Shown: piece by piece, positions 1 to 60,052 of the stretch | Numbering within the stretch: position 1 is the first letter of the stretch | Layout: every line of letters begins with the position of its first letter | Origin: Cyanidioschyzon merolae | Lineage: Eukaryota | Direction: 5' to 3' (one strand) | DNA: 64,000 nucleotides | Assembly (NCBI GenBank): GCA_000091205.1 | Contig: AP006486.2 | Program-made: the position numbers and the translations under genes | Notes under the pieces: model-generated | What the model saw: only the letters and a program-made list of their open reading frames with translations | Database searches by the model: none | Told to the model about the DNA's origin: nothing

Positions 1-2073
1 TGCTGAAGAGTTCAGAGAGGTAATGCGTTTAGGAGATATGTCGCAGGGGGCGCGAACATCGCCAGCACTCGCCCAGTCTCATCATGTTGCTTCGTGCCTC
101 GACCGACAAACGTTGCATCGGAAGGATAGTTCGTATATCTGACGTCTGGCTCTCTCGCGTCTTGCGCTACTACATGTTCCTGCAAAATGCGTCACAGAGT
201 GAAGCGGACGCCCCCGCCATATCCGAGTAACGTAGCCTCGTCGAGCGTCCATTGGATGCGGTGCTCACACATGTCGGACCAGGGGGCATTCCAACGCCGT
301 AGAGACTTGTGAATTGTACCGCAGTGTATGAAGGTCTGCGCGGTCAGCTGCGACTGGTCCCTACCCTCAAGTATGAATCATTCGACAGCTTTGCCAAGGG
401 CATTCACTGGGCGAATTCAAAATTGCCCATGACTAGGGAGTAATTCGAAAGCATTTACCGGGTTTGCAGAGACCGACGGAACATCAGCCTGCATGCACGC
501 TTCCACGCCTATGCTTCATTCGAGCAACGGATCGCATTTTTAACCGTTCAAGTTGGATGAAGGAGAGATTTCGTGGCGAGCGCGAATGCCTGGGTGAAGG
601 GCAACAAGGCGATCGCCAAGCCTCAAAGTCAAGAGGACGGATCCAATATCCCGAACGGGAACCAGATGAAGTTCCTCAATGGTTCATGGACCCGGTATAA
701 TCGAGCGCCGGGCATGACGGACGATCGGTGAGAAACCAGCGAATAGTAGGTCGGCACCAGGACCCGTGCCAATGCCCCGAACCCTGTCCTGGACAGAGGC
801 GATGCTGCATACGCTTCATTCAGAGAGTACATGCGGGTCCAGATTTTTCGACCAGACGATCTTTGCTACAAGGACCGGAGAGCATGCTGGCGTCCTCAAC
901 AACCGATTCCGTTGCTCCATGTCACGAGGCGGTCACTCGCCAACCTCTTCATTGAGATGAAGAACAACAGCACCGATGCGTCGCGTCGTATGCTCGAGAC
1001 CTCTGACGCGGCACGTTTTGGAGAGCGCAACAGCTTCACGTTTGTCCCTTTGATGGACGGGTACAACGCGTGCAGGGATCGGTGCTGCACGATGCCCATT
1101 GATGCCTTCGGAGCGAGATTCACACATCTCGAGCGCAAACTGGCGCTGAAGCGGGCATCCAGGGAGAGCGTAAAGCAGCGACACATCCACGATGTGGTGT
1201 CCGGAAGCATGACCGAGCGTCAGCCTGCCACGAAATCGAAAGCGAGTAACTTGCCGAGCTGGGACTCTACCAGAAACCATGTGCACAAGTCCGTTTTTCT
1301 TCGCAGAGACTTGAACGCCTCAGTGAACGCCAGAAACTATTTTGTGCTTCCGGATTGATCATCGAGTTTGCATTTTTGGCGGTCATCATGTCATTCACCA
1401 GGGTGGTACTTGGATGAAACGCCGAACCCCTTCGATGAACTCATCGGTCGCCACGAGCGACAGACTTCCATCCCGGCCTGGAACGAGGTACGCGTACATG
1501 ATGGAACGGCACGGCGAACGCTGGACACCCAGCACACCCGGATCTCCGTCTCAGGACACTGGAAAAGGCCCCGCATGCCAATGGGTGCACTTTCATGGCG
1601 CTCCACGATTCACCATTACCGAGGATGCCTTCCATCGTTGAATGCGTCCGCCTCGTGCAATTCATCGCGTTCCATCAGGAGGTGACGACCTTCTCGCACA
1701 CATTTCAGCCGGATTCCATTCCACGACAATGCGCATGAGCTGTCGATGCGTCGCTTGATCATTCGTTGCAGGTCATCGCGCTCGCCAAACTGGAGTTGTA
1801 GATGATAACCTGTCTAGCGCATGGTGTGTTTACTCGGCAGATCACATGAAAAACTTTAACGCTTCAGGTAAAGTGCTCTATCATCTATCATATACAATTT
1901 GCAGGTCGCTTTGCGGGCCAGCAACGACACCTCAAGCCAGCCAGACTTGTCCGAGCACCGGCAATCTCCATCTCTGTCAACCGTTCATCCGATAATCGCA
2001 TATGCGGTCGCTGGTTCATGCGGCCTGTTTCGAAGCGCAGCACACTGCGCCATGCTGGTGTTCTGCATCCGCA

Positions 2074-2096
2074 CAGACAGACACACACACACACAC
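2074..2096. repeat. (AC)n / (ACAG)n microsatellite
   Basis: Direct read: acagacagacacacacacacacacc. Confidence 0.9.
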
Positions 2097-2616
2097 ACCA
2101 AGCACCGTATAGCAACGATCGGAATGTATGTATACGATGCGATGAATGGAGGGGATGTATGATGTGTGCAGTGTATCCCATCGGTGATGCGTATCGCGTC
2201 CACGATGCATGATGCAGGATGTACATCAAATTTGTCGTAGGTGCAGTGTACACAGCACCTGCACGATATCCTGCACCAAGGATATCCTTGATGCGTAGCG
2301 CACCCGCAGTGCAGAATCTGCTCGTGATGCGTTCTGTCTGGAGAGGACGTACCAGTGCGCACCAGTACACTGCTAAAAAGAATCGGTGCTGACGTCACTG
2401 TGGCGCGCATCAGGCATCCGCTATGGTCACACGACGCTGCTGGAACGGACACACGTCCACGAAGACGACGCTCCTGACCAACATCGGCGACTAGCGCCTC
2501 AGTAACACCGTTTCCGTTGATACGTTGGCACACAAGCGATCCCGTCATTCCGTCTATCTTCCGCTTCCATGGCATCCGCACGATGCAGTGCTTTGTCTCA
2601 CGCGTTTCATGATGTA

Positions 2617-4707
2617 TTAGGCAGCGCTCATGTCACCGCTGGCCAACTGCTTCTCAACGAGTTGGTAGTAGAATCCTGATGGGCCCAGAGCCATGAGCTC
2701 CGAGTGGTTGCCTTGTTCAACCACGACACCATCCTGCATTACGAGAATGAGGTCTGCACGCGCCACTGTGGACAAGCGGTGGGCAATCACAACGCTGGTA
2801 ACGCCGTCAGAGGCCATCATCCGATCCAGCGCCTCCTGAACGAGAGCCTCGCTCTCTGCATCCAGAGCGCTGGTGCTTTCATCCAAGCAGAGTAGCGTTG
2901 GATGCTTCAGAATCGCTCGAGCGATAGCGATGCGTTGTTTCTGGCCGCCGCTTAACGCCAGACCTCGCTCTCCGACCTCGGTATCCAGTCCATCGGGTAA
3001 TGCCATAACAAAAGAGTACGCATTGGCTTCGCGCAAGGCCTGAATGACCTCCTCATCTGTAGCATCTCGTTTGCCATAGAGAATATTATCGCGGATGGTT
3101 CCAGAAAATAGAACCGGCTCCTGCGAAACAAGCCCAATCTGACTACGCAAGGCGTGAAAGTCGTAGTTCCAGGCGGGCGTACCGTCGAAGAGCAAGAGAC
3201 CGCCGCCTTGCGGTTCGATATCGTAGAAGCGCATCAGGAGCTGAATAATGGTCGACTTGCCGGCACCGCTTCCGCCGACAATAGCGACCGTCTTTCCATT
3301 AGGGATTGTCAGGGAAATCCCTCGTAACACTTCCACGTTCATTCGTGTCGGGTACCGGAAGTGGACGTTCTCGAAGACAATGCCTTGCTTCAGTACCAGA
3401 GGCTGCGTGACGACTTCAGCGCCGGGGTCAGGACGTCGGTACTGTGGTACACGGTCGATCATTGCAAAGAGCTCGCCACCAGCACCGAGTCCGCGGGTGA
3501 CGTCAGGCCAGACCTGAGCCGCCTGACCGACTCCCATGAAGCCGAGTATGGCGCTGAAGAATGCAGTTAGCAAATTACCCAGATTCAGAGAGCCGCGAGC
3601 GATCAGTTGCCCGCCCCACCACAGGGCAAGCGCATAGACACAGAAAATCACCAACATAGACAGTCCAAAGAAGAGACCGTCTGAGATGTAGCGTCGCCTC
3701 CCCAGACGGTACAAGGGATCAAGCTTGCTGCCGTATCGTTGCGTTTCGTAGCGCTCTGCCTCGAAGGCTTTGGTCGTGCGAATATTCGAGAACACCTCCG
3801 CTGCAACCGATCCAGCACTCGCATACGCTTCAGAGCTTCTTTTCGTATTGCCACTCATCTCGATCATCTGGGCGGCACCAGCGAGCACAACCAACGGTGA
3901 GAGCGCGATCAAGACGCCAGTGAGGGCAGGCGCGAATATAAACGCCACGATTATACCGACAACGCATTGGGCGAGATTGAATAAAACCGCACCGAGTTTC
4001 GAGAACGAGTACTGGATGACCTGAACGTCGTTATTCAGCTTTCCACCGAGCTCACCAGCTTTGCGGCGGTCGAAATAAGTCACGTCTTGCTCGACCAGGT
4101 TGCTGAAAGCCGCGACTCGCAGGTCCCGAGCTAGACGTTCGCTTGCGATCCCAAACAAAGCCGTTCTTGACCCGGCTACGATGAACTCGAAGACACCGAT
4201 ACCGACGAATCCAACGGAATACTTCCATGTTTCGCCTTCGATCTGGCTTTTGCTCTTCGTGAAAACTTGAAACATTCGACCGAATACAATCGCGAACGCT
4301 GGTAGCGTTGCTCCTTCCAAAATAGAAGCAATGAATCCGATAACAATCATAGTTGCAGACGAGCTCCAGGCAAGCGCGAAGATTCGCCGTGCAGTCACGC
4401 CCGTGGTGTAAGCGCTCTCCGGACCAGAGGCCTTTGCCGCCTTTTTAGGGTCGCCTGCCTCGGGATCTTCACCAGCAGCCGACGGGCGTGCCCAAAACCG
4501 CCACCAACGTCGGTTAGGTGTGTCCTTCTCCTTCAATTTCAAACTTGGAAAAGATTCTTGAAACGCGGTCGCCTCCGAACTGACCGCAGTGTCCGGCGAC
4601 ACCGGGTCCGTCTCGTAAATTGAGCTGCTGAGGGTTCGCTCGCGGTGGTTTTCACCAACGCTGCTGTAGTTCGCTGTTTCAAAGCTTTGCGCTGCGTGAG
4701 CGTTCAT
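2617..4707 (-). CDS. ABC transporter, B-family half transporter (6-helix TMD followed by one NBD)
   Basis: 696-aa ORF with an ATG start at 4705-4707. The N-terminal half is hydrophobic (TM helices). The C-terminal half carries Walker A (GGSGAGKST), the ABC signature LSGGQKQRIAIARA, Walker B LLCLDESTSALD and the H-loop VIAHRLSTV. Confidence 0.85.
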   Translation of the reverse strand: MNAHAAQSFETANYSSVGENHRERTLSSSIYETDPVSPDTAVSSEATAFQESFPSLKLKEKDTPNRRWWRFWARPSAAGEDPEAGDPKKAAKASGPESAYTTGVTARRIFALAWSSSATMIVIGFIASILEGATLPAFAIVFGRMFQVFTKSKSQIEGETWKYSVGFVGIGVFEFIVAGSRTALFGIASERLARDLRVAAFSNLVEQDVTYFDRRKAGELGGKLNNDVQVIQYSFSKLGAVLFNLAQCVVGIIVAFIFAPALTGVLIALSPLVVLAGAAQMIEMSGNTKRSSEAYASAGSVAAEVFSNIRTTKAFEAERYETQRYGSKLDPLYRLGRRRYISDGLFFGLSMLVIFCVYALALWWGGQLIARGSLNLGNLLTAFFSAILGFMGVGQAAQVWPDVTRGLGAGGELFAMIDRVPQYRRPDPGAEVVTQPLVLKQGIVFENVHFRYPTRMNVEVLRGISLTIPNGKTVAIVGGSGAGKSTIIQLLMRFYDIEPQGGGLLLFDGTPAWNYDFHALRSQIGLVSQEPVLFSGTIRDNILYGKRDATDEEVIQALREANAYSFVMALPDGLDTEVGERGLALSGGQKQRIAIARAILKHPTLLCLDESTSALDAESEALVQEALDRMMASDGVTSVVIAHRLSTVARADLILVMQDGVVVEQGNHSELMALGPSGFYYQLVEKQLASGDMSAA

Positions 4708-4998: not shown

Positions 4999-5182
4999 GT
5001 GCTGGTGATCAGACAGCGCCCCCCGCGGCTCAAAATTTCGACGCTGCGCGCGAGGCGACCGTTCCTTCCGGCGCTGTGTGGATTCCCTGCCCGATGACAG
5101 CACGTTTCCGTTGACCACGGATGCCGGCATTCGGGATGGATATTCGCTTTCGGGAAAGCGTCTACTAGGAAGCACCTACCTT

Positions 5183-5350
5183 CAAGTTCCATTCCCCGTA
5201 CTTCGTCTCGTATGCACTGGTCGTTTCGTATGCTCTGTCGTGTGCCGAGTGCCTGCCTCGAGCACTCGCCGTAGCGCTTATACCGCTGAAGCAGGTGCTG
5301 CACGGAGACAGAACGGCGTTGCCATACCGCAGAGGGCGTCGGCTCGCGGA
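5183..5350 (+). repeat. Dispersed ~170-200 bp non-coding repeat, copy A (core ctggtcgtttcgtatgctct...agtgcctgcc...agagggcgtcggctcg)
   Basis: Aligns at ~75-85% with copy B (41355-41500) and copy C (60053-60230). Flanking sequence is unrelated in each case. It has no coding potential and no tRNA A/B boxes. Confidence 0.7.
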
Positions 5351-5599
5351 ATCCTACATGTGACACGCAATCACGGCGAATTCTCATTCCGGGAGCCTGC
5401 AAGATGCGCAGTCAGAAGCGCTGCCTGCGATAGCGCGAGGCGATAGACGAAGAGTCCACTGGGACCTGGGCGACGCCCAGATGCAGCATCCTGCTCCTAC
5501 TCCCGAGCTGAACGAAATTGTGAACGAGTTGCTCAGATCTGACTAAAGTACCTGCCACTGGGAGAAGCATGAAGCACGAGCCTGGGATCCTGTCTTAAT

Positions 5600-7752
5600 T
5601 GATATATCAAGTATCTATCAGAGCGAAAGTTGCGGGTGGGCATGAGAAACCGTGCGTCGAGTCGTACTCCGTGAGTATCATAAAGGCTTCCTCAGGAATA
5701 ATGCTTTTGGTGAAGGCGATGTATCGCGACTTGACGCAGATCGAAACAGTCGAGGTTTCGGAGGAGGAATTTTTCGACAAGAGCTTTCATCGTCACCTGA
5801 TGCTTGGCACAGGGGAAGCGCGGAGCAAAAAATAAGTGAGTGCACGCCCTCCACGAACACCACGCCGAATACCGCTTCAGCGGTGCTCCATACAGGGGTG
5901 ACTCGCGAATTTACGAATACGCGGCGATGGAGTACCGCACGAACCTGAAGAATCACGTGGTCGTGAAACTCGAACGTTTCATGATACGCTCCATCTTTGC
6001 GTAGTATCCGGGCCTCTCTCGCAAAGGAATATGCGCGATCATCGACAGCATCACGAACGATTGTCAGCATGAACAGGAGATCGAATTCGTCGACAAGAAG
6101 GCGTCATATAGGAGAAGGAATGAGGTTTCTGTAATCCGCGCCACTATTGAAGAGAACCGTGCGGTCTTGGGGCCGGCGAATCCAGCAGAAAAGGTATCAG
6201 ATATGAAATAAACATGGAAAAAGATGTTATCCTTTAATTCTGCTCGATTTCGTATTTTTGGACCGAGAATCCGAACGCAAGGCGGAGATGAAGCTGAGTG
6301 AGGAAAAAATGAAGAGTGGGAGAGACGGAAGGCTGTCCGAATGGGGAAGCGCTTCAACGTCGTTCCAATGTGCAACATCAAGTCACATTTTGTGACTGTC
6401 GACTCCAGAATCCTTCATGACTTCATGAAAGAGATCAGTCCCGAGCTCAATGTTAGCAGGGAGGGGTTCTCCGGCGAAAACCGGGTGACGTTCTGCAAGA
6501 GAATCTTCGATTTCAAACGTCTCAATGTGAGCAAACAAGGGGTATTACTGGGATGATCGAAACCGATGTAGTGGCCATGTGTGTACACTAGCGGCGCTTG
6601 AAGAAAGATCGTCCAGTTCCGTCTGTGACGAAAGATGAAGATAAGAGGAAGGCGGATCCTGCGACACAGAAAGTTCAGGATAACTTTTTTGTCGTTGGCG
6701 CAGACCCTGGGAATACGAATATCATAACCATCGCTGTACCCAAACGTGCGGAAGATGGTACTGACGGCAACTTACGTCAGAAACACATACGTCTTTTGAG
6801 GTTCTCGAGAGCGAGATACTATCGAGAATCCGGTATAATGAATGCAAGGAAGAAAATTGATACGTGGAATGCAGGAATGAAGGATCACCTCGAAGTTTTG
6901 GGCGAGGTGACGAGTCGAGGAGCGGACTTTGAAGCTTTTCGGAAATTCATGGAAATACGCGTTGCTCATTGGGATGCCTTGTGGGAGGAGTGTACCAAGC
7001 CCCGGTGGGCTCGTTTGCGTATGAATCTGCACTGTGGGAAGCAGCGGGCGTTTGCCAACTTTTTCAATCAGTTGAGCGCTCTGAAGAGGAATGAAAGTCA
7101 GAGGCTCGTAGTAGCGTACGAAGCAGGGCGCTGGAAGACCCAAAAGGGGACCACGCCAGCCCCAACGATAAGAACGTACAAAGAGTGCGCAAGGCGTTTT
7201 GTTACGATACCTGTAGATGAGTTCCGAACGTCCTATACACATCACGAACTGGGGTGTACACTTCAGAGGGTCGAGATGGAAAGGTGCCAGCGGACCCCTG
7301 AGGATATCGCAAAGTATGGACCGCTGACGGAAGAGCAAATGGAAAGGATGGCGAAAGTTCGTGGACTGCTTGCATTAGGAAGCACCATCAATGGCAAGAA
7401 ACGTATGGAGTTTGTGAGCCGGGACTTTAACGCCGCGATCAATGTAACGATATGCGCAGCGATGGAAAGGAGACCTCCAGAGCTGAAACGAGAGAACTTT
7501 ACTGGACAATCACTCAAAGTCGAACTATATGAGAGAAAGTTGGAGGCAGTAGTCGCTGGCCCGCCGAGCAAGGCTGGGAGGCATCTGCACATCCGTTGGA
7601 GACTTCTTGTCCTGGGCGAGTTTCTCGCCACCACTGTACACTGCCGGCAGCAACGTTTTTTCTTTTGGAAGTTGTGTGTCGTCGTTCTGGCACTGGAATG
7701 GAGTTCATTCACGACGCCTTCGGACGAGGCGTACGTTCGTTATCCCACTTGA
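5600..7752 (+). pseudogene. TnpB/Fanzor-like RuvC nuclease gene (IS605 OrfB homologue), copy 1
   Basis: The C-terminal ORF 6598-7752 begins at TTG, not ATG. It contains Ruv[19 protein letters not shown], RuvC-II LVVAYEAGRW, the Zn-finger-adjacent motif PVDEFRTSYTHHELGC and RuvC-III SRDFNAAINV. The segment 5600-6597 is colinear with the intact N-terminal part of copy 2, but carries a frameshift near 6556, an in-frame TAG at 6589-6591 and further stops upstream. Confidence 0.7.
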
Positions 7753-10700
7753 ATATCCAGTGGGTGCGCACAAGGCGCTGAGCTGCTCCATTTTTTGTGT
7801 GCAGCGTGTTCAGATGATGCATGCTGCAGTTTTTCGATATTCATGCCTCAGGGTAACGCTGCGCAGCATGTCGACATCCTGTCTGAGGGCACGAAAAAGT
7901 CGGCAGCGTCGTTCGACGTGTTCAAAAGCTCGTGCCGCATCAAGTTACGGGCACCACACGATTCATAAATCCGCATCATTTCGTTGCCGTCGACGAAACC
8001 GCATGCGACATCCCCATCGTATTGCTCCGGGGATATGCAACCGGGCGTTTCCGTCTCTTCTGTTTCCATGGAAAAGGATCTCACACTCGGATTTCCCACA
8101 TTGCAGCAATCGCTTCCCATGGAGCATGCGTCACTGCTCTGCACGTTAGCAGCATCGACGGATCGAAGGTTATTGATGCGATCTCCGGTCTGGAGTTCGC
8201 TTCTGGATTTTGTCTCATCAGGATTGACATTGACTTTTACAAATCCCTTATTGAATGCGGTAGTGCGCGAATGCCCGATAACGTACTCGCCGAGGCAATC
8301 GCTCAGAAGAAGCAGGTCGTTTCAGGGTAAACCATTGGGTAAGGGAACCGAAGGCATCTACAGGGACCTCGCAAAAGCGTAAACGGTGCGATGAAACCAG
8401 TCTGAGCGCGCCACGGGCTGGTACTCGTAGCAAGTTGTATGGTCGGCGTACCGGACCACCTGACTGCATCCACGTGTCACCGCTGAGGAGGGCGCTCCAA
8501 AGCTGTCCACAAAGAGTACGAGAATGGCACGCAAGCCGTGTGTCGGAACTTTCGTCTGTGCAAGCAATGCGTCGTCAACGGACGTAAGCAGCGTGATCAT
8601 GAATTGACCGCTGTCATCATGATCATCATCATCCTTCGAATGCAGATCACGGAGCTCATGTAAAGGCTCAGACTGGCGTATTCGAAGCCCGAGCGAACCG
8701 AGTGAAACCGAAAGCAGTCACGGGAGAGATGTCCGCAAAGGCTGGTGCGAATTACAATTGGAAGAGACCCAAACTCCATCGTTTATGCCCGTATTCGAGG
8801 ACCTATTCCGTGTTATGCTGACATATGTCTAGTCGCTTTGTTGAACGTGAGACTAGTTAAGGGGTTCCAAGCGGTCTCAGCGCATGCATGCCCACAGGAG
8901 CGCGGCTCCACCTGCCTCGCTATTCCTGGAGAAAGCGCTGTCAAGCGAGTACGCTGACGGCTACGCGATCAGACAAGATGCCTCATACGCCGTCTCCATG
9001 AGGCGCTTCGCAGGATCCCCACGGGTGTCGGCTGCGTATGCAACTAGCGTTCAAATGCTTCACCGTTGTCTTTGAGGAATCAAGCAGTTCTACCGAGGTA
9101 AACGTCTTCGTGTATCTAAGTTCGTACCGCAAAATAGCCGCACAAATCCAGGTGTGGTAGCGACAGCTCCGCAATCATAGACGATAAAAAATGAGCATTG
9201 CCTTTTCTAATGAGGCATTTATCGACTCTGCCGCCAAGAGTCACTCGTGATCATGGACGCACGCTCACGAAGCCTTGCACATCGCATGTGAAGAACTCGT
9301 GCTGCGTCCCTTGGGCAAGGAAGCTGCAGGCTTTGCGTTCGAAAAGCCTCAGATTTGGCTATTGTTCAGTTGCCCCCTATCATAAAAACGCATTTCCATG
9401 GTGAACAAGAATATCCCGCCGCACATTGGAATCGATTTTTGTCGATTCCCTGACTTGGCGTTCGCACCGACTTCTCAGCCACAGTTGCCACTCCAGGCAT
9501 CGTCGCACTTGGTTACGGGATTTCTATGGACGACACCCATCGACGGACACCATGCCGAGTCCTATTCTCGATACACGAACCGCTACACCACCGGAACATG
9601 GTCATGCGTTCGTGAGCATGCAAGTGCAGGCATTGTGACCCGCGCATATGCGCCACGTTCCCAGTCAAGACGATTCGTTAGCGTCTATACATCTGCGAAT
9701 TTCGAACCACCACATATATTCCCCATAAAGAGCCGACTCGATCGCAGCGAGCACGCCTCGCAATGATCTCGCATTCACCAGCTTCGGCGTTTTGGCAGGA
9801 TGCTCCTGGTGTCGTGTTCGGCAGGGAGCGTAGATCAGGACAGGCGGTCTCATTTAGAGAAACGTACATGAATCTCTACGCTTTGCCAGGTTGGAATTGG
9901 ATCCGTACGGTTTCGGATGCAGCAAGAGTCGCAGCACAACCAGCCGATTCATGATGGTCAATGATCGGCAGTTTCCAGCCTTGGTCGCGTCGCTGATGCG
10001 CATTGGCAAGCGTTGTGTACGCCCCCGGTTGAAAAAGGTGCATCCGTAGACCGCGAAGATGCTGACACGGAAACGTAAACAAGGCCAGTAGGCATCAACT
10101 ATTGCTACTGGAATCATGGCACTTGAGAGAGCAGCGCATACCCGCTTCTGTGACTTGGTGCTTTGGGCGGAACCGCACTGTACGCACTTTCTGGGCTATT
10201 CGGGCCAATGAATATCGAAACAGAACATAAGATCCAGAAGAGCTCGTCGTGAAGGTGCTCAGTTCCAACCAGGTCAAGAGTCGCGGGAGCCGATGAATCG
10301 CATCAGAACTTGAGTCAGCAAGAACGTAGCGCAACTGCTCCAGCGTCGTCGCTAACCTTGTTTCACAGACTCCGTTTGCGACGTTGTGACAGCTTCGTAT
10401 CACGACTCCATACGTTGAGCAAAGAGCGTGCAGGTCTCGTGCTTGCGCTAGCGGAACGCACGAACTCGGCGATGACTCTTGCGGACGCCAGTCGCGAGTA
10501 TACAGTTGTCTTCCATCGCTCAGCACTGTCGTTCCTCCAGCGATGGAAACAAAAAACTCTCCTCAAACAAGAGCATCTGAAAGCTATCAACCTGGTTCCA
10601 AAAAAGTTCCACCAGAGAACCGTTTCATTGTATACCTTGTCTAAAACGTTCGACAACTCGCCCGTCAAGCGGCTCAGAGGCGAGCAACTCGTCTACGACA

Positions 10701-11205: not shown

Positions 11206-14200
11206 ATGTCAAAGCAGGAAAAATCCAGCGAAACTAGAAGCGCAGATGACAAGTCGCCAACGGCAGCGACTGGGAACTCCATGACACCAAGCGCTGGGAC
11301 AGCAGACACGGAAACACCTCTAGTAAGCTCTTCACAGGTTACGGACCAAGGGAGCGGTTCTGTTTCAAGTCGGATGCGGGATGAAGCGACGTTGTCCTCA
11401 ACCGGAAACGACTCGGCGAACGCAAGCGTGCAACCCGCGAGCGACGCCTCGGACTCGTTGCAGCAAGTCTCGGCCAGCTCGATGCCCAACGTCACAGGAT
11501 CCAACGACGACAAGAACCCAGCACATGTACAACAAACAACTTCTGGCGCTGGTCAGATGTCGAGCGGGCTGGAAGGATGCAACACTTCTGGCTCAGCAGC
11601 AGGTTCGAGTGCGCTCCCGCCACCACCAGATTCACCGGTTCCTGTCGAAGAGGCGGCATCACAGGTGCTATCCGCAGGACAAGCAGTGCCCGAGTCGGGC
11701 AAACGAACCCAGGCGTCTGAAGTCCAGTCAACAGCCACATTGTCAGCAGGTCGTGCTCGCGGAGTCAAAAGAGGACTCGAATCTGCGGAGCCAGACACGA
11801 AGAGCACGGTTGAAGAGGAACCTCCGGTGAAGACCCTTCGCCATGATGCTCACGAAAGATACGAAATTCATCGTGATCAAGAATCCTCTACAAAAGCGGC
11901 AGATGAGTCTTCATCGCCATCGTCCAGATTGGAGATACCGAATGCTCCAGTGCCGGCTGCGACGGGCGTACCACCTGTTCTACCAGGCGGTACCAGCGGT
12001 GAAGATGTGCCTGCTTTTACACCAAGCAAACCATCCCAAGCGTCCCCGCCGCTGTCGACACCGCAACCGGCTACGGCGGCAGGGAGCAGTGAGACATTGA
12101 GACCAGAGGACTCGACAGAGTCGGGGTATTCGACGCGCGATACCACCGAAAGACATCCGCTGCGGCGGCAGGAGGAAGCGCTTGCGAGAGCGCCGCGCCA
12201 GAACGTCAAGAGCACGATTCAACATCGTATGCAGGAAGAAGCGGAAGGAAACGACGGTGATGAATACCCAAGCGCGGAAATCAAGGACGGGATCGATGAT
12301 GAAGACGATGAAGAAGAAAGGGCAGACGACGACGATGACGATGCGGATGAGGAAGCCGATGAAGACGAAGACGAAGACGAAGATGACGAGGAAGACGAAG
12401 ATGAAGAGGAGCACAGCAGCCGCCGAAGACGTGGAGCGGCTCAGTTCTTGGAACTCGAGGCCGAAGTCGATGAAGGCGACGAGGAAGAAGAGGAAGATGA
12501 TGATATCCAAGACCTCGTCGCCGATGAAGACGAAGAATCCGCAGATGAAGAGGAGCTCGCTGCCGAGGAGCGGGAGGCCATCGCTCGCCGCGAACAACGT
12601 CGTCGAGCGGAGGCAGCGCTTCTGCAACGCGCCCAAACCGCTGAGGAGCTCGAAAAATTCGTCCAAGAACGTTACGGTGGCCTCGACGATGAAGACGAGG
12701 AGTCCGACCTCATCACCCGGGCGTTTCTTGAGGGTGCAGCTGGTGCTGCTGATGGATCAACAGCACGCCGTCGGCACGGTGCCGCATCCGACCTGGACGT
12801 GTTGCCGGTGCCGGCTGCCATGGCTCGCGGCAAGCCCCCGACCGACATCGAGCAACAGAGCCTCCTGCCAACAGTGCATGACCCGCGCTTGTTCCTGGTG
12901 AAATGTCGAACTGGTAAGGAAAAAGAAATGACCATCTGTCTCTTGCAGAAATGCGTTGACCGGGCGAATCAGGGTCAACCTCTGGCGATCACCGGCATCG
13001 TGGCACCGGATCATCTGCGCGGTTGCCTCTACATTGAGGCACCACGTGAAAACGATGTCCGAGACGCCATCAAAGGACTCCATCATCTGTACCAGACCAA
13101 GATTACGCTGGTCCCGTTGAAAGAGATGGTAGAGGTCGTCTCTGTACGACCCACAACGGAGCGTCAGAAGCTCATTCCAGGCCAATGGGTGCGTCTACGT
13201 CGTGGCCTCTACGCTGGGGATCTGGCACAAGTCTATCAAATTCGAGAAGATCAAGTTATCGTTCGCTTGGTACCGCGTCTGGACTTGACGGCGTTGGCGC
13301 GGAAACCGCGCTACGGTGCCGTCGATGCCGTCGACCGAGACGATATGGAAAACGTGGACGATGCCGCTACAAAAGGTGCTCCTTCACGTCAAGTCGGAGA
13401 AGCTGCCGCAGCACGCCGCGGTGGATCGCGGACGTCCGGCGTGCGTCCACCGCGGAAACTCTTTGATCGAGACCAGGTCGCTCGTATCCTTCACGTGAAT
13501 GTGTTTGCGAGACGTGATTCGCGCACCGGTGAGTGGTTTGACGAGTTCGAAAACGATCAGTTTCGTTACGGTCTTTTATACAAACGCGTCTCTCGAAAGA
13601 ATATCATTCATGGAGCAGCGATGACGCCGCCCAGCATCGACGAGCTGGAGCCGTTCCAGGAAGCGGAGCGTCAGGCGCAAGTTGCTGCTGCCGCCGCCGC
13701 CGCCGCCGCTGATGATGATAATGATAATGATAGTGATGATGATGATAATGATGATGCTGGTGCTGGTATCAGCGATAAAGCGTCTGACGACTCGCTTGCC
13801 GCAGCGGCGACGGTGCAGCGGTTCACCAGTGGTATCGACGCCATAGCAAGCGGTACCAGTACACCTGCAGCGGACATGGAAGCGTTTCGCGCTTCATCTG
13901 CTCTGGTGGCTGCAACACAAGCGGTCACCGCTACCGCTGCGGATGCCAATCGTCATCGTTTTCGCAAAGGGGATCGTGTACGCGTTCGACGCGGTGACCT
14001 GCGGAACCTCATCGGCATCGTGGATAGCGTCCTGCCCGACGCTCGAGTCCTCATACAACCGACCCCAGCGACAGGTGAGCACGATGCCTCGACGACACCG
14101 GCGTCAGTTCAGGTGTTGGCGGCAGACCTGGAAAAGTACTTTGCCATCGGGGATCATGTGCGGATATCCGCTGGCAAACATGCCGGTCTCACTGGCCTCG

Positions 14201-16636: not shown

Positions 16637-17672
<1,036 letters not shown>

Positions 17673-17892
17673 TATAGAATGGGGGAGGATATAAGAGGCA
17701 TATCGGAAGAATAAGAGGTCTAGAAGGAATGGGAGAATAGAAGGGATAGGAAGCGTGCCCTCTAGATTTTCTGAGATGATCGCGTGACGCTCATGCGTGT
17801 AAGCGCGCAGGTGCCGTAAACGTGCGCATACGTGTCCCAGTGTTCCAGGGCCGGTGCGCTGCGTCATGTATTGCGTTTGCGCGGAGAAGCAG

Positions 17893-30800: not shown

Positions 30801-31167
30801 CGTCAACGCGCTTGCAGGATCAAGACTTTCTTCCCTCTGCTTCAAGAGCAACAGGCACCAAAAAACTGGTACTACGTAAGGCACGGTAGAGTCCCAGCAA
30901 GGCGCTCAAGCAAGTGCGTTCCGTGTCTACACCAGGCCCGCAACGCGACCGATAGGAGCTCTTGTTTCGGGCCAACGTGATCACCCAAACTTGCAAAGTC
31001 TGTCCTTCACCAGCCTTATCCCAACAACAGGACTTTGTTCAAGCCCCTACTCTTGCCTCTCTTGTTGGTTAGTCGCTTCCGCAGGCGACTCAAAGTGCTT
31101 GTGTATTCAACAAAAGAAAAGCAGATTCTGATCAGGCTTTTGCCGCCGTCGCACGGCCGCCAAACGG

Positions 31168-31370
31168 ACACGCATCGACACGCATTCGCACGCATTAGCA
31201 CGCATTAGCACGCATTAGCACGCATTAGCACGCACCAGCAGGAATCGACACGCATCGACACGCAACAGTAGGCATCAGCACGCACCAGTAGACAACAACA
31301 CGTACCAGTAGGCATCGACACGCAACAGTAGACAACAACACGTACCAGTAGGCATCGACAGGCAACATTG
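31168..31370. repeat. Compound minisatellite: (cacgcattag)x5 followed by ~40-bp units (cgcaacagtagacaacaacacgtaccagtaggcatcgaca)
   Basis: Direct read. It lies ~370-570 bp upstream of the COPA start codon, in the COPA 5' intergenic region. Confidence 0.9.
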
Positions 31371-41354: not shown

Positions 41355-41500
41355 ATTCACGCACGCACTGGTCGTTTCGTATGCTCTATGTGTCGCCAAG
41401 TGCCTGGCGTGAGCGCCCGCAATAGCGCCTATAGCACCGGTGTAGTCGTAGCTCGGATAAAGGATGACTATGCCGTGCACCGGAGAGTGTCGGCTTGAGA
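41355..41500 (+). repeat. Dispersed non-coding repeat, copy B (solo copy, 150-300 bp upstream of the separase start codon)
   Basis: Aligns to copy A, 5183-5350: cactggtcgtttcgtatgctctatgtgtcgccaagtgcctgg...tagcgcctatagc...gtgtcggcttgagagg. Confidence 0.65.
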
Positions 41501-44500
41501 GGATAAACTGATACACATTCAGAGACGCTTCCCAGCCGTTTTCGATCGGCCGACTGCCACCGGCTTCAGTTGCTCTTTGCACCATTCGAGCCTGAGAGGC
41601 TGCCCTACAAAGCTGGATTGCTTCAGCACCGCGTGTCTCGTCGTCAGCACCACATGTCGTCTGATCCTGATGGTGGTATTGAAGTCTTTGTTCACGAACT
41701 CCATGCGTTAGTTGCCACTAGTTGAATTCATCAATGCACGGATTCCTTGAAATCTTACCTTCTGTACCTCTGCAGGCTTGTCATCGTCAATTCGGGCAAA
41801 CACGTTTAAGCGACTGTCTCCCTTCTTCTCCGTCTTCTACGTTACCTGCTCTTCTTCTCGAAATGGTCGGAGAGAAGAGGATATTTTGGTTTCTTTGTTG
41901 AACCCGGTGTTGATTGCCCTCCGGGATTCCCGACTTATATGTCCCCAAGTTTTTCTCACATTTCTTATTTCTTCAAATGAAAGCACTTTTTGATGGCCTT
42001 CAGATGTGGACCTTACCCGACGAAGAAGGGCATGGAGAGGAAAGACGACACGTGCCCCCGTTTGTCACCGTGCCCCAGAAGCTTCAGCGATTCTCCCAGT
42101 TGAGCAGTGATTACGTTTCACGACAGAAAACTCTCCTTCGATGGGGTTGAATCACGTAGAGTGCGGAGGAATGCAAAACAGCTCTAGCCTGATGGAATTG
42201 GCAAAAGCTCGAACGCAACCGGAGTAGTGAAATGCCACGATGGCCAGTGAAGGGACCTCGCCAGACGTCAGGGGAAAGTCTTCAATGATTCGACGCAGTG
42301 GTTGATGCCATTATATGAGCCATCTCTACGAGCAAAATCTCGGGCGGCCAAATGAATCCGCTGCCGCCCGAACAAATGATGTCATCGTTCTCTGCGAGTT
42401 CGATCGTGCATACAACAGGCACCCCGCTCCGCGAATACCTGTACAGGTTACCATCGGATCGTCCGAGGGGAAGTTCATTGACTGGAAAAACAAACCGACG
42501 TTTCCGTGCTTCATACCGATCGCAACGTGCCTGCAACGCCATAATTTTGATTTCCGTCGAAGATGGCTGTGCATGCACTCGGACTTTCTTTTGCGACTAT
42601 ATCCCAGCGTTTTACGGGACCATACGAACAGGCTGCTGGGTACCGGTGACGCCCATGTCGACTCCTATTGTCGCATTTGCGTTCCATTAGGTAATCAACC
42701 GATCGCTTTCTATTCTTGAACGCAAACACGTTTTAAGAATATCGGGTTTTGGCGCGGAACGCATCACCTTCTTTCTTTAAATGTTCCTGAGCCATTCGGG
42801 TAATGTGTTATAACTGACCTGGAGGAGGAATGCAGTCCTCCTTGCACAGCTCAGTACAGAATCTATCTTAAATTCAATTCATCTACGATCTATACAGTAC
42901 ATGGCGACGTGATTTCAACCTCCTGCTATACACCCCAGCGGATGCGAAACAACATTGAGTTGAATGACTTTAAAACCCGGATGCATCGGCACCGCCAGCC
43001 TCCAAAGAAGCGATCAGCGCTCTGTTGCAGACGCGTGTACGTTCCGACTGTACTGGACCATTCTTGGCTTCGGGCGCAGCAGCTCGATCGATCCGAAGAC
43101 CTGTTGGGTAGCGAGTCTGCCTTTGGCGCTGGATTCGCCGGGTCTCGCTCGCGCAGGCAGAGCGCATAGACATGCAGGCGATGCGATACATCTACACACG
43201 TCGTTTCACGGTGCATGTGTCCTATGGATAGAAGCATCGCTCACGCGCCTGCTGGATCCGCGCTGCTGGTGAAGTTCGGCAAGGTTCCGCGAATCACGCG
43301 TTCAGAGTAACACTGGACAGGGGTCCGCCTGGAAGGCATTTTCAGCCCAGACGGATTTCTTCGTGCCTCTGGACGTGTGTGCAGTCTCATGTATGTGGTC
43401 GTTCAGTTGCGTCGAGTATACACTGCGGAATGGGGTTTTTTGGCGGCGGTCCATCGCGAGTAAGAGTAAGTCGCGTTGCCGCTAGGTATATCGGTATGCG
43501 TTTCTGGGCGTTTGGAAATGATGCTGGAGGCATTGAACCGATTCCCCAGAACACGCCCTACTGAAATTCAATGAGTTGTTCAGTACCCCGAGATACAAGC
43601 TGGCATGGCGATGACTTCATTGCAAACGCCCCGGCAACCGATGCAAATTGGCGTCCGCGCACAAGCTGTGCATGGAGGCAAGCTCCGGAGTCGATCGACC
43701 GACACAACTTGAAGAAGTAGGCGGGCACCCCAAAGCACACGTTTACGTGTGGCGCACCATCGGAATCAAGAATGATATGCTTTAACGGCGCGTAGGCCCG
43801 GGCTGCTTCTCGAGCCGACGGACGCGCGCGGACAAGCGGTCGATGCCGCAACTGCTTCCACAGGCACAAATAGATTTACGCGCTGATGTACATGCCGCCC
43901 ATTTGCACAGAAGGATCATCCCATGCGACAGACTCAGCTCTTCTTACTGCTTGTTTCTCGAGAAAATCTTTTGCTGTTACAGCACCGACGCTTCCCTGAC
44001 TCGCGATACCGCGTTCATGTGCATCCTCGGGGTATCACACGGGAGCACGGTATCGCGGTCGTCTTGGGTGCAGCGCGCATGAAGTCGTCCGACTCAAGCG
44101 CAGGCAAGAAGCAAGCAACAACTGCCGACGCTGCGCCCGCGTGCAACCCTCTGCGTCCCCGGCTCTGCCAGGGCCAAATCTTGACAACCACACAACTGAA
44201 CTATATGCAGGCGAAAAAAATCCTGTTCCTTCCTTTGAACAAACACCGCCGTCACTCTGAATTTGGCCGCAAATGAGCTCCAGGCGAGCCCCGAGCGCCC
44301 CTCATGCTGCAGCGAAGCGCACTTTCAGGGTCACCAACCGGCGATCATGTTCCTCGATCAACGGAACGTTTACACTGACCAGTCATCTCCGAGTGCGTGC
44401 TGTGGGTATCGGGAGCCTGACAGGCACCAGGCACGCTGCCGCAGGACCCAACCATAGGGGACAAAGCACATTCGTACTTGTCCTCGGCACTTTCCGACGC

Positions 44501-53039: not shown

Positions 53040-56000
53040 ATGGGTAACGTATGCTCTTGGTCAGCGGGTGACCCAGCGGAACGCCATTTGAAGCACGTTG
53101 TTAAGCAGCTGGAAGACGAGTATCCATGGGCACGGAAGCAGTGGCTACGGAAACAAGTCCGCGCTGTGGACGGCGATCTCGAGCAGGCGCGTATCGCCAT
53201 CGAGCAGAAAATTGGCGGGGCACGCCCTTTCGTTGAAGCGCACGTGTCGGATGTCTATGGCAAAGGTGGAGATATCTCGCACGGACCCGTCATCGAACGA
53301 GGGAAGGCGTACCGGAGGTCAGAGGGCGCCGCGAAGCGGAGCTCGCGCGCAAGTCACGCACAGCAGGCAGACGCAGGGCCCGACATGCAGCTGGTTCCAC
53401 CCTCGATGCCTTTACCCGGCACGTGGCCAGCCGCCGGGACACCGGATCCTTCCGAACGCGTGATAACGACCCTTTTCAATTGGAATGGTTCTGGGGAAGC
53501 TTCGCACCCTATTGCAGGCCTCATGCTGCGGCAACTGACTCGCATGCGTTTCATCGATGGCATTCGAAAAGCCCGAATGGCCTTGTCAGTCTCGAATATA
53601 CATGTCGAGACTTGTGCGGAGCCTCTTGAGGATGCACCAAGAGCCGCAGATGCGATCGCGTTGGAGGAGGACGCGCGCTCCCGCACCAGCGCTAGAGTCA
53701 CGCGTGCTGTCTCGAGCCAGCGACGTCGTCGAAGCACCAGTGTTCGTCGACGCACGACCGTGGGTCTCGATCAGCGCTATCGAGGGTCCGGGGGCGCGAT
53801 ACCCGCTGCTGTAAGCCCTGAACAGGCGTCAGCGGCTGCGTCCTCAGATTCTACTGGAATGGTACTTGTGCTAGACATGGTAACCTTATCTATCGTGACA
53901 AGTCTGTGCCGGTTGCAGCAGCTTCGACAGCTGGGCATTGATACCGTTCAGGTACTGAACGATCGGAAATCGCCAGTCGGACGAAACGGCTCGACACCAG
54001 CAACAACTGCAGCATCTGTGATGACGTTCACTTGTACCGATGCGAGCCGGAACGCGCACCGAGGTGATGCCATCAAGCCGCACATCTATTTCGTGACCTC
54101 AGTGCCAGCATCCGTGGAAGCGATGGCCTTGCATCTGGAAACCACTGCAAAGGCCAGACTGTCCGAAGGAGCGGACTCCATTCAAGATGCCGTCCTCATC
54201 AGCGGACATCTCCCCAATGAGGCACTCGGCCTTGTGCGTCAACAGCTGGCACACACGTCACTGCTTCAGCGACTGGGGTGCTTCATGGAAATTCGTTTGG
54301 ATTATGTAGCAATAGAGGAGGGACTTTTTCACTTTTGCCACCCGAGTGCACTGATCGATCTCTTTCCCGCTTCACGCAGCAAAACGGAGCGTCTCCGCCA
54401 GGAGCGTTGCCTTGCCATCGAAGCGCAACAACTTGCCTCGGTTTGCGAGGTAATGGCTGGTGTCGAGGACGGATCGCCCTGGCTCGGAAATGTGTATTTT
54501 GTCCGTGGCGCCGGGACCGAAGACCCCGCCTCGAGACTCGCGAGCGAAAGCCTTGTCGGCGGCGCGGCGCCAGCCGAACAACTCGCCCAGTTGCTTGCGC
54601 ACGAGCTGCGGCGTCGATGGGCATCAAACATGCCGCACGCCACCCAGGCTGCCGAGGCCTCCGTCTCGAAAACCGAAACAGGCCCTGCACTGACAAGCCG
54701 TTTGGCGGAGCTGGCTCCGGGGAAACGCCCCGGACCTGTAGACGTTCTGATTTGCGATCGAACGGTGGATCTGGCGACGCTGTTCATGCACGACTTTCAC
54801 TACGCTGCAATGGCGATGGACCTCTGCGAGGGATCGCAAAATGCCTGCGCTCGCGTCCGCATTCCCTTGACTGAAATCGGGCTGGAATGGGATCTCCACG
54901 AACCGATCAGCGCTGCGGAAGTCGATCTCGACGAGGAGCTGGATACGATCTGGCGTGAAGTGCGACATCGGCATATTGCGGATGCGGTCGATGCGCTTTC
55001 CGCGACCTTTGACGCTTATCTGGACGCGGAGCCTGGCGTTGCGGCAGTCATACGTCAACCCCAGAGGCGAAACCTGGACGCCGAATCGGCACAGCGTCCC
55101 GAATGGTACCGGATCCCGCAGGCAAGGGCGGCGTGCGCGACCGCCCAAGAGGCACTCGATACGTTCCTAGCACATTTCGCGCTTATAGAGGTTCTGTTGA
55201 CACGCTTCTCCGACTGGTCTCTGGACCGTGTCGCTGCCATGGAGCAGGATCTGGCCTGTTGTCGAACGAGTCGAGGCCGACGCTTCCGTCATGCACTGAG
55301 ACGAGCACTTGCTGTTGCCGAGCATCCGAACGTTCGCGTTATGGACAAGCTACGCGTCGCGCTGCTCTATCTGGTGACTCAGGACGTTGGAGCCGGTGAT
55401 CTCGAGCGTCTCCTGGAAGTTCTGCGCGGCTACACGATTCCGAGCTCCTTTACCAACGATTTCATTGATGGTGGTGTGGGCGACGCAAGGCGTGCGCCCG
55501 CAAGCATTCGGGCTGATATCGCCTTGCGGACTGTCTGGGACTATCTCAGTGTCGCACTTGGTACAGAGATGCGCAAGAGCCGAGCGGAACGGCGTGAACG
55601 ACGAGAGCGCTCTCGTTCGCGTTCGCGTTCTCGAACACGCCGCGACAGTTGGAGCAACCTATCCACTCGTGGGCCCGGCGATGAGGGCAGCGCTGACGAG
55701 GCTAGCGATGACTTTGAGCTCTGCCGCTACAACAACCGTCTGGCAGTGATCCTACGTCAGTTCGCGGAGAACGTCTTCCGGCCCGAGTGTGCGTATCCGC
55801 TCGCAACGGATCTTGGTGCGGCTCCGAGTCCCAAGTATACCTCACCGGTAACACCACGTTCTGGGGCGCCCTCTGGACTGAAGCCGTCTCCAGTGGTGTC
55901 GCAGACTCCGTTGCACGCCGCAGGTCAGAGCGGAAACGGCGCACTTGCTGGCGCGACTTGCGAACCGACGCTGATCGTGTACGTAGCCGGGGGTATCATG

Positions 56001-56132
56001 CCCAGCGAGGCCCGAGATGTATACCGTTTCGCGCAACGCACCGGTCGTGTCGCAGTTGCTGGTGGTTCTTGCATGCTCACACCACGGGAAGTACTGGCCC
56101 TGCTTTGCCGTAGAGAAGCCGTTGCGCCGTAA
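53040..56132 (+). CDS. Sec1/Munc18 (SM) family vesicle-fusion regulator with a ~270-aa N-terminal extension
   Basis: SM-family signatures are GMVLVLDMVTLSIVTSLCRL...GIDTVQVLN, KPHIYFVTSVPASVEAMALHL and the highly diagnostic VLICDRTVDLATLFMHDFHYAAMAMDL. The ATG is at 53040 (MGNVCSWS..., an N-myristoylation-like MGxxxS). An early helix, LEDEYPWARKQWLRKQVRAVDGDLEQARIAIEQ, resembles a CUE/UBA-type fold. Confidence 0.75.
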   Translation: MGNVCSWSAGDPAERHLKHVVKQLEDEYPWARKQWLRKQVRAVDGDLEQARIAIEQKIGGARPFVEAHVSDVYGKGGDISHGPVIERGKAYRRSEGAAKRSSRASHAQQADAGPDMQLVPPSMPLPGTWPAAGTPDPSERVITTLFNWNGSGEASHPIAGLMLRQLTRMRFIDGIRKARMALSVSNIHVETCAEPLEDAPRAADAIALEEDARSRTSARVTRAVSSQRRRRSTSVRRRTTVGLDQRYRGSGGAIPAAVSPEQASAAASSDSTGMVLVLDMVTLSIVTSLCRLQQLRQLGIDTVQVLNDRKSPVGRNGSTPATTAASVMTFTCTDASRNAHRGDAIKPHIYFVTSVPASVEAMALHLETTAKARLSEGADSIQDAVLISGHLPNEALGLVRQQLAHTSLLQRLGCFMEIRLDYVAIEEGLFHFCHPSALIDLFPASRSKTERLRQERCLAIEAQQLASVCEVMAGVEDGSPWLGNVYFVRGAGTEDPASRLASESLVGGAAPAEQLAQLLAHELRRRWASNMPHATQAAEASVSKTETGPALTSRLAELAPGKRPGPVDVLICDRTVDLATLFMHDFHYAAMAMDLCEGSQNACARVRIPLTEIGLEWDLHEPISAAEVDLDEELDTIWREVRHRHIADAVDALSATFDAYLDAEPGVAAVIRQPQRRNLDAESAQRPEWYRIPQARAACATAQEALDTFLAHFALIEVLLTRFSDWSLDRVAAMEQDLACCRTSRGRRFRHALRRALAVAEHPNVRVMDKLRVALLYLVTQDVGAGDLERLLEVLRGYTIPSSFTNDFIDGGVGDARRAPASIRADIALRTVWDYLSVALGTEMRKSRAERRERRERSRSRSRSRTRRDSWSNLSTRGPGDEGSADEASDDFELCRYNNRLAVILRQFAENVFRPECAYPLATDLGAAPSPKYTSPVTPRSGAPSGLKPSPVVSQTPLHAAGQSGNGALAGATCEPTLIVYVAGGIMPSEARDVYRFAQRTGRVAVAGGSCMLTPREVLALLCRREAVAP

Positions 56133-59520: not shown

Positions 59521-60052
59521 GTCGTCTTTCGTGCCGCCTTCGACGCAGAGCGTCCCCCTTTCAGTCCTTCTTCTCTTCCTTTTCTTCTGGACTTGGCACT
59601 GTTTTTCTGTTTTTTCTGGCAGCCAGCGACACTGGGCCTCCAGGATCGTCGACTTGCTTTTCATAACTTCCTTTTTTTGTTTTTTTGGAAAACAACGCTC
59701 CCTCCAACGCCTCTGATATAAACAGCGAGGAAAACTTGAATAAACCAAACTGAGGGTTGAAATATAACTGAACTGAAAAGTACACTCTGCTATGACTTTA
59801 ACGCAAATGCAACTTGTACTTGAGAGCAACACGCTCAAGATCGCGATCCCGTTTCCCTTCAACGGCGAGACGCGTCGCGTTAGTTGACTGCCCGATCTCC
59901 CAGATGCGCCCACCGAGCGCGATTCTTTTTTTTCATGGACAAAACGTGTGCATAGGCCAGTGCTCTCGGATTATGCGCATTTTTCTTTTCTTTCTCTTTT
60001 ATTTTGTGTTTAACTTCAGTGCGCGGTAATGTATCTATAAAGCCCCCTCCCT

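Follow-up and report, generated by a model that had tools for sequence, protein, structure and literature searches.

A Fanzor1-type open reading frame of Cyanidioschyzon merolae is very probably the remnant of a dead CMe-1A transposon copy

RESULTS

An open reading frame inside a copy of CMe-1A

The locus studied here lies in a 64,000-nt stretch of Cyanidioschyzon merolae contig AP006486.2 (the window). It carries an open reading frame (ORF) of 384 codons at 6598-7752 of the plus strand, inside sequence that matches the transposable element CMe-1A. The initial annotation, made from the sequence alone, had reported this ORF with a TTG start as part of a TnpB/Fanzor gene, and both the frame and all of the motifs quoted for it were located. 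The TTG is a mechanical start, being the first permitted codon, two codons past an in-frame TAG at 6589-6591. The first ATG is codon 81 (6838), 3' of the RuvC-I aspartate D36. Residues 1-338 of the ORF align with residues 392-734 of CMe-1, the protein of CMe-1A, at 81% identity over 343 aa (BLASTP, E = 0), and on this alignment the similarity is far beyond chance. A homology search with the ORF returned 204 proteins, all from hot-spring metagenomes, 60-98% identical and mostly fragments; related stretches in such metagenomes number at least 440. The ORF product was not among the NCBI-sourced proteins in this search.

CMe-1A is the sole Fanzor1 family listed for C. merolae (Bao and Jurka 2013, Mobile DNA, PMC3627910). 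About 150 copies were described in the genome, each approximately 80% identical to a consensus of about 3 kb. They have no terminal inverted repeats (TIRs), and their target site duplications (TSDs) could not be determined. The 5' 635 bp form a second repeat, TE-N2_CMe, and some copies still encode intact proteins (PMC3627910). The supplement of that paper gives a 3169-bp consensus DNA and a 734-aa CMe-1 protein encoded by a single exon. In this consensus the ORF occupies 906-3110, with its ATG at position 906 and a basic N-terminus resembling a nuclear localization signal (NLS); no second ORF was found inside the 3.2-kb consensus. The existence of the family, the number of its copies, the consensus and the assignment to Fanzor1 have all been known since 2013.

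By blastn, consensus positions 1-494 correspond to 5092-5585 of the window (80.7% identity) and positions 1075-3166 to 5589-7671 (86.1%). Both published ends of CMe-1A are present, and multi-copy coverage drops to zero beyond about 5090-7680. The published copy number and these ends support the earlier proposal of a mobile, multi-copy element. Comparison by eye of 5085-5091 with 7675-7690 revealed no TSD. The features of this copy (copy 1) and of its surroundings are collected in Table 1.

Table 1. Features of the CMe-1A copies and of neighbouring genes in the window
Feature	Position	Strand	Remark
Copy 1 of CMe-1A	5092-7674	+	limits of the published consensus; ~13 further conserved nt to ~7687
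5' non-coding segment of copy 1	5092-5585	+	consensus 1-494, part common to TE-N2_CMe
Junction of 580-bp internal deletion	5585-5589	+	consensus 495-1074 missing
Decayed N-terminal coding region	5589-6597	+	~CMe-1 residues 57-391; 5 frameshifting indels, 3 premature stops
Stop-free remnant	6598-7611	+	CMe-1 residues 392-734 (end of WED, RuvC, NUC); 81% identical
RuvC-I Asp D36 (GADPG)	6703-6705	+	aligned to SpuFz1 D383
E175 (AYEAGRW), GAA	7120-7122	+	canonical RuvC-II position; copy-specific Gly-to-Glu
Relocated catalytic Glu E208 (VDEFRTS)	7219-7221	+	aligned to SpuFz1 E541
RuvC-III Asp D276 (RDFNAAINV)	7423-7425	+	aligned to RD of SpuFz1
Read-through tail	7612-7752	+	family TAG stop is CTG at 7612-7614; ends in flanking DNA
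3'-terminal region	7546-7687	+	candidate place of guide RNA scaffold, transposition signal, or both
Long-range helix, 5' arm	7546-7561	+	copy 1 sequence GCAGTAGTCGCTGG
Hairpin A	7598-7612	+	spans stop codon
Hairpin B, GGCGAG-TTT-CTCGCC	7615-7629	+	family form GGCGNN...NNCGCC; intact in copy 1
Long-range helix, 3' arm, CACCACTG	7629-7639	+	
Terminal hairpin C	7651-7674	+	
Conserved terminal 13 nt	7675-7687	+	
Copy 2 of CMe-1A	57338-59897	-	consensus 671-3169 at 59897-57338; 5'-truncated
ABCB1	2617-4707	-	exact match to Cyanidioschyzon merolae 10D protein
Unc-18-like protein	53040-56132		exact match to Cyanidioschyzon merolae 10D protein

Lesions of the gene

The 580-bp internal deletion removed the region upstream of the gene, the ATG and the first 56 codons, which include the basic, NLS-like N-terminus. 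The lesions that follow it were scored, for both copies in the window, against a near-intact metagenome copy with 778 open codons. Five indels shift the reading frame (+2 near 5657, +1 near 5826, +1 near 6209, -1 near 6307 and -1 near 6547) and three premature stops interrupt it, at 5833 (TAA), 6002 (TAG) and 6589 (TAG). Downstream of 6598 only in-frame indels occur. At the far end the family stop codon is lost, and the frame past the CTG at 7612-7614 runs through the 59-nt tail, over the end of the element and into the flank. The 384-codon ORF is the longest stop-free remainder of the gene, extending from a premature TAG to flanking DNA beyond the element. The initial annotation had noticed that the upstream 1 kb is homologous to a second copy yet broken, and had offered a decaying copy as one of two explanations. 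The mapped indels and stops confirm the first observation and, together with the deletion and the lost stop codon, bear out that explanation.

The other explanation offered was an intact Fanzor gene with one or more unrecognised short introns, for example at 5836-5880. A GTGAGT is indeed present at 5836-5841, and Fanzor genes have acquired introns in other eukaryotes (PMC10530073). However, positions 5840-5880 encode HALHEHHAEYRFSG, which is colinear with HALHENYAEYRFNG of CMe-1 (HALHE.YAEYRF.G), so that the candidate intron consists of coding sequence with homology to the family gene. At 45 nt it is phase-neutral, and the +1 frame change between the flanking homologies stays uncorrected by its removal. 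Its removal would leave at least seven other lesions, counting the missing ATG and the four frameshifts and two stops that lie past it. The published consensus gene is, moreover, a single exon of 734 aa. We consider an intron-containing intact gene exceedingly improbable.

The second copy proposed for the window was found on the minus strand (copy 2, Table 1) and is about 80% identical to copy 1 over approximately 2 kb. It keeps one reading frame with six in-frame stops and contains a 75-bp tandem duplication at 58309-58458. The duplicated unit (25 aa, ATQKVQDNDFVVGA.KHEEKKEA..P) lies directly upstream of the RuvC-I strand and partly duplicates this strand into GADPG. It is present once in copy 1 (about 6640-6700), twice in copy 2 (58309-58458) and up to about six times in metagenome copies (loci L001-L080). 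Locus L057 was considered as an ortholog of copy 2 that might show an empty site and was rejected, its 3' region being different and followed by the 5' end of another element.

Taken together, we conclude with high confidence that this locus represents a CMe-1A copy that is dead, CMe-1A being a non-autonomous DNA transposon whose single gene encoded a Fanzor1 protein.

Catalytic residues and the missing zinc finger

The initial annotation had described an intact D-E-D triad that included the glutamate of AYEAGRW. Three acidic residues are indeed kept in the ORF, namely D36, E208 and D276, but the glutamate of AYEAGRW is the wrong one. D36 is conserved in all 92 aligned relatives, and R275-D276 forms the RuvC-III RD motif, whose aspartate is kept in 92 of 93. 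At position 175, 91 of 95 relatives have glycine; the consensus has GGA there, and the GAA of copy 1 is a private change. Position 208 is glutamate in 93 of 95 clade members and is followed by T211-S212. In Fanzors the canonical RuvC-II glutamate is replaced by glycine or proline and an alternative glutamate is used (PMC10530073), located six residues before the zinc-finger position and just upstream of [TS][TS] (PMC10530073; PMC10711439). To judge by these alignments, the catalytic glutamate of the family is E208 and not E175, and E175 is a private substitution that by chance recreates a canonical-looking D-E-D triad.

A zinc finger had also been reported in the ORF. No CCCC zinc finger is present between the glutamate and the RD motif, where the segment reads THHELGC...ERC (THHELGCTLQRVEMERC) without a CxxC pair. 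Any CxxC between the glutamate and the last aspartate was found in only 2 of 95 clade members, and Pfam PF07282 gave only sub-threshold matches, in distant relatives (E 0.002-0.09). The absence extends to the whole clade, in which CMe-1 is joined by hundreds of metagenome proteins 600-700 aa long and by proteins from Tetrabaena socialis and Haematococcus lacustris. The CCCC zinc finger was called strictly conserved in the original Fanzor/TnpB motif definition (Bao and Jurka, PMC3627910). Since it is missing from the whole clade, published CMe-1 included, this is a variant clade, and copy 1 is not excluded from Fanzor1 on this ground.

Relationship to Fanzor1

Single sequences and general profiles gave no assignment. 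At E ≤ 1 no Pfam or NCBIfam family matched the ORF or six full-length relatives, and neither phmmer with the ORF alone nor a profile of the C. merolae-type copies alone found anything in the PDB. An exhaustive HMMER search collected 1559 relatives, many of them full-length (600-700 aa) and some from the green algae Tetrabaena socialis and Haematococcus lacustris. The C. merolae family is linked to this clade with E values down to 1e-107. A profile of 85 clade sequences matched Parasitella Fanzor1 (PDB 9cf0, E 2.4e-21) and Spizellomyces Fanzor1 (8gkh, E 1.3e-15). In this alignment the DPG aspartate and the DEF glutamate of the family correspond to D383 and E541 of SpuFz1, and the RD aspartate corresponds to the SpuFz1 RD, taken as D606 without a residue count. 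The structure paper of SpuFz1 identifies D383, E541 and D606 as the residues that bind metal.

An AlphaFold2 model of the ORF built on a deep alignment had a mean predicted local distance difference test score (pLDDT) of 85.7 and a predicted template modelling score (pTM) of 0.80. Foldseek searches of the PDB with this model gave Fanzor1 structures (SpuFz, PpFz and GtFz) as all of the top seven matches (best E 5.6e-11); Cas12 proteins came next. For the REC/WED N-terminal half no usable model was obtained, a 586-aa relative with a shallow alignment reaching a pLDDT of 34 only. On the profile and the fold the family is identified as Fanzor1, specifically CMe-1A, and the broader TnpB/Fanzor label of the initial annotation can be narrowed in this way. 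Of the profile comparison that it proposed, the Fanzor1 part gave matches to Fanzor1 structures through the clade profile, and the TnpB part gave no Pfam or NCBIfam match. The literature searched reports no RNA-guided DNA endonuclease activity for CMe-1.

A prokaryotic IS200/IS605 TnpB brought in by contamination or recent horizontal transfer would share the general motif order D...[TS][TS]...RD that is seen in the ORF. However, the profiles without a match include OrfB_IS605 and OrfB_Zn_ribbon, and both in sequence and in fold it is eukaryotic Fanzor1 proteins, not TnpB, that match best. The catalytic glutamate is of the relocated type, and the N-terminus of the family is basic and NLS-like. 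The locus also has nuclear genes of C. merolae on either side and has been conserved in another strain; with the exact protein matches listed in Table 1, the window is recognised as nuclear DNA of the red alga. A prokaryotic origin deserves next to no credence.

Selection on this copy and on the family

A metagenome contig contains the orthologous locus, again flanked by ABCB1 and Spt5, with 99.3% identity over 12.9 kb. In the homologous part of the ORF the two strains differ by 8 substitutions (0.79%), compared with 0.6-1.0% in non-coding DNA, and these are distributed 0/6/2 over codon positions 1/2/3. A 1-bp deletion at 7656 separates the strains in the read-through tail. In ABCB1, 7 of 8 substitutions are at third positions. 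This comparison points to neutral drift of copy 1 between strains.

Separately, the first 2.9 kb or so of a Spt5-like ORF (11206-14155) differed between the two strains (window vs. locus L081) by 16 substitutions (5/7/4 over the codon positions) and a 6-bp indel, unlike ABCB1 with its third-position changes. This pattern may reflect a fast-evolving low-complexity N-terminus or a wrong mechanical ORF start.

The family as a whole has a different history. Codon position 3 had 2.5-3.0 times the mismatches of positions 1 and 2 over the RuvC domain and 1.1-1.9 times over the N-terminal half. Differences of copy 1 from the consensus conform to this, being distributed 28/28/58 over codon positions 1/2/3 in the C-terminal half vs. 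52/37/45 in the N-terminal half. From the family-wide third-position excess, the CMe-1 protein was functional while the element spread, and its RuvC half was the most constrained. Functional master copies fit the remark of Bao and Jurka that some copies are still intact. The family as a whole diversified under purifying selection on RuvC, with master copies making a working protein.

These results bear on whether the C-terminal ORF could be a domesticated or truncated but functional RuvC-domain protein made from an internal start. It has 338 homologous codons without a stop or frameshift, D36, E208 and D276 are intact, and its model folds confidently. However, its only ATG, codon 81, lies past the RuvC-I aspartate, and the lesions have destroyed the WED/REC half, where the guide RNA-DNA duplex is bound. 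The frame lacks its natural stop, and in the other strain a frameshift alters the tail. The substitutions, 0/6/2 by codon position, have accumulated at the neutral rate, and the product is missing from the NCBI-sourced proteins noted above. A domesticated protein is thus very unlikely. With no ATG upstream of D36 and neutral evolution between strains, the intact triad has no functional meaning here.

Several points nevertheless speak against a simply dead copy. Strikingly, all eight disabling lesions are concentrated in the first 1005 bp; the 1014 bp that follow have none and keep the three catalytic residues. By a rough estimate, neutral divergence of about 8% predicts 2-4 nonsense changes in the C-terminal half, and the open frame would lie in the lucky tail of this expectation. 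The strain comparison rests on eight substitutions only, and a fragment initiated at M81 or a 3' RNA may be expressed. In favor of a dead copy, an open RuvC half is not rare, being found in 8 of the 49 metagenome copies with a recognisable RuvC-III motif, where all three motifs stand in one open stretch.

The 3' end and the guide RNA question

Guide RNAs of Fanzor and TnpB systems come from the right end of the transposon and may overlap the end of the ORF (PMC10530073). By analogy with characterised Fanzors, a guide RNA at the 3' end of CMe-1A is plausible. The initial annotation had reasonably pointed to 7400-7900 as the place to look for a structured RNA. The 3' 209 nt of the consensus folded with a z score of -1.85 (6 of 200 shuffles as good), into a 9-10 bp long-range helix CAGTAGTGG / CCACTACTG and hairpins; the conserved ACTACTGTACAC segment can pair with CAGTAGTGG inside the ORF. 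The 3' tails of individual copies had a mean z of -1.27, compared with +0.32 and -0.65 for coding controls. The corresponding 209 nt of copy 1 itself had a z of +0.68, no better than shuffles, and its helix arms are mutated (GCAGTAGTCGCTGG / CACCACTG).

The covariation across copies that the initial annotation had suggested looking for did not appear. In three hand-specified helix sets, pair counts were no better than in shuffles (82.3% paired vs. 80.9%, 34/500; 81.5% vs. 81.4%, 219/500). The two variants of the terminal hairpin pair in shifted registers and are missed by column-wise counting. A null result is expected if most differences among copies represent neutral decay after insertion. 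When 50 3' ends were aligned with MAFFT, the consensus structure from RNAalifold was nearly empty (-2 kcal/mol), and Rfam had no match at E ≤ 1 over 5000-8000. An apparent extra conservation of the tail (mismatch 0.13 vs. 0.18-0.20; p = 0.01 and 2e-4) was rejected as an alignment-end artefact; the low mismatch came mostly from the last 20 nt, which only 29 well-matching high-scoring segment pairs reach.

It could be that the protein gene of copy 1 is dead and its 3' end is still transcribed as a guide RNA, used in trans by intact Fanzor1 proteins of other CMe-1A copies, with cleavage directed to targets that match the flank from about 7675 or 7688 onward. The right-end location of guide RNAs in Fanzor and TnpB systems, the z scores of the consensus and of the individual tails, the intact hairpin B of copy 1 and the reported intact copies of CMe-1A (PMC3627910) are in its favor. 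The tail of copy 1, however, folds no better than shuffles and its helix arms are mutated. Covariation was null, Rfam gave no match and the tail conservation was artefactual. We regard a guide from this copy as quite unlikely, and the dead copy remains our preferred explanation of the locus.

Element ends

Copies align for about 13 nt past the published 3' end of the consensus and then diverge. These nucleotides (TTYGNTGYYGSYG) are conserved among copies and lie at 7675-7687 in copy 1 and 57325-57337 in copy 2, and the alignment suggests that CMe-1A runs about 13 nt past its published 3' end. A terminal hairpin of 9-10 bp, about 13 nt from the end, exists in two pairing variants, CGTCGTTCG-ACTTT-CGAACGGCG and AACGTTTTTC-TTTT-GAAAGGCGTT. 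Most of the complete 5' ends, about nine of which were examined, read TC[ACG]GATGAC after a T-run (5' flank of copy 1, 5080-5091).

The subterminal hairpin and the terminal nucleotides may therefore be rolling-circle transposition signals of the Helitron or Helitron2 kind rather than parts of a guide RNA, which would be compatible with a dead CMe-1A copy. The two hairpin variants, both pairing, and the TC-type 5' ends behind a T-run would suit such signals, as would the lack of TIRs and TSDs in CMe-1A (PMC3627910). In Chlamydomonas, the Fanzor1 elements CRe-1/2/3 belong to Helitron2 and are found inserted behind TTTT, and relatives of the clade occur in volvocine green algae. On the other hand, the paper in which Bao and Jurka described CMe-1A is also the one that defined Helitron2, and it left CMe-1A unclassified (PMC3627910). 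No CTRR end, clear 5' hairpin or asymmetric terminal repeat was seen with the nine or so complete 5' ends. This possibility deserves consideration but is doubtful.

Other features of the window

Further fragments related to Fanzor1 or CMe-1A were found. At 132-1391 (+), on the side of ABCB1 opposite to copy 1, lies a far older Fanzor1-like pseudogene in an advanced state of decay. Its identity to clade members is 23-30% (tblastn E to 3e-20), with several stops and with PIDAFGARFTHLE and RRDLNASVNARN motifs still recognisable. A 65-nt piece of the CMe-1A 5' segment (consensus 125-189) is at 41367-41431 (+), and a third Fanzor1 remnant, represented by its last 80 or so codons and with 40-47% aa identity, lies at 41522-41764 (-). 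Just upstream of copy 2, an inverted fragment of the CMe-1A / TE-N2_CMe 5' segment (consensus 84-271, 76%) occupies 60046-60238 (+). At several metagenome loci the 5' regions of the family are mosaics of fragments in both orientations.

Two unrelated tandem arrays are present, seven repeats with a 52-nt spacing at 17238-17733, in or near a long ORF, and a microsatellite at 31149-31368 with a 10-nt CACGCATTAG-like unit. The C. merolae genome is almost without introns, which accounts for the long uninterrupted ORFs in the window.

DISCUSSION

Copy 1 is ordinary genomic debris, a pseudogene and not a new gene, and its locus should be masked as repeat CMe-1A instead of being annotated as a gene. 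The case also shows how reading motifs by eye can select the wrong catalytic residue, since a chance Gly-to-Glu change mimics the canonical D-E-D.

By analogy with characterised Fanzors, active copies would produce an omega RNA from the last 150-200 nt or so, with a guide read from the DNA past the 3' end. The protein-RNA complex would then cut matching DNA through the first aspartate, the glutamate of VDEFRTS and the last aspartate. Neither the omega RNA nor cutting would be expected from copy 1. Homologous recombination is efficient in C. merolae, a tractable alga, and some of its roughly 150 CMe-1A copies are reported intact. CMe-1A could thus serve for in vivo tests of the role that Fanzor1 plays for its transposon, starting from intact copies and not from copy 1.

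CMe-1 and its green-algal and metagenome relatives of about 600-700 aa may constitute a distinct zinc-finger-less Fanzor1 clade with RuvC under purifying selection. Its guide RNA would be built on the long-range helix between CAGTAGTGG in the last 60 nt or so of the ORF and CCACTACTG in the 59-nt tail, followed by the terminal hairpin, and decayed copies would perhaps give guides in trans. As a whole we offer this picture as a speculation that is unlikely to hold.

The published CMe-1A consensus is the closest known system. Copy 1 agrees with it in its DNA (81-86% identity) and in both ends, and its divergence from the consensus, its lack of TIRs and its undetectable TSD are as published. It differs from the consensus by the 580-bp deletion, five frameshifts, three stops, the lost stop codon and the Gly-to-Glu change at the old RuvC-II position.

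Bacterial and archaeal TnpB proteins (e.g. that of ISDra2) have a RuvC nuclease with the same motif order and a right-end guide RNA, and a "TnpB2" subset has a relocated glutamate (PMC10530073). Unlike them, CMe-1 has no Pfam match and no zinc finger, is larger (734 aa), has a basic N-terminus and resides in a eukaryotic nucleus. The 3.2-kb consensus contains no TnpA partner, the neighbouring genes of the loci not having been screened for one.

The Chlamydomonas reinhardtii families CRe-1/2/3 are, like CMe-1A, algal Fanzor1 genes on non-autonomous elements without TIRs, with 3' hairpins and with T-runs upstream of the 5' end. Their ends are recognised as Helitron2, their genes have several exons and their TSDs vary, whereas CMe-1A has a single exon and is unclassified.

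SpuFz1 (PDB 8GKH, 9CEU-9CEZ) and the Fanzor1 of Parasitella parasitica (9CF0-9CF3) are the structural counterparts. For SpuFz1 a guide RNA and nuclease activity have been demonstrated; those of CMe-1 would be predicted by analogy. SpuFz1 has a CCCC zinc finger in its NUC domain, and its element has 30-nt inverted repeats and a TA duplication; CxxC pairs and TIRs are both missing in the CMe-1 clade. The proteins have a WED-RuvC-NUC core in common with CMe-1 (Foldseek E 5.6e-11, template modelling score 0.56 on the query). The DPG aspartate, the DE[FY] glutamate and the RD aspartate align to D383, E541 and D606, at a sequence identity of only 10-18%. All three proteins come from multi-copy transposons with many decayed copies, of which copy 1 is very probably one.

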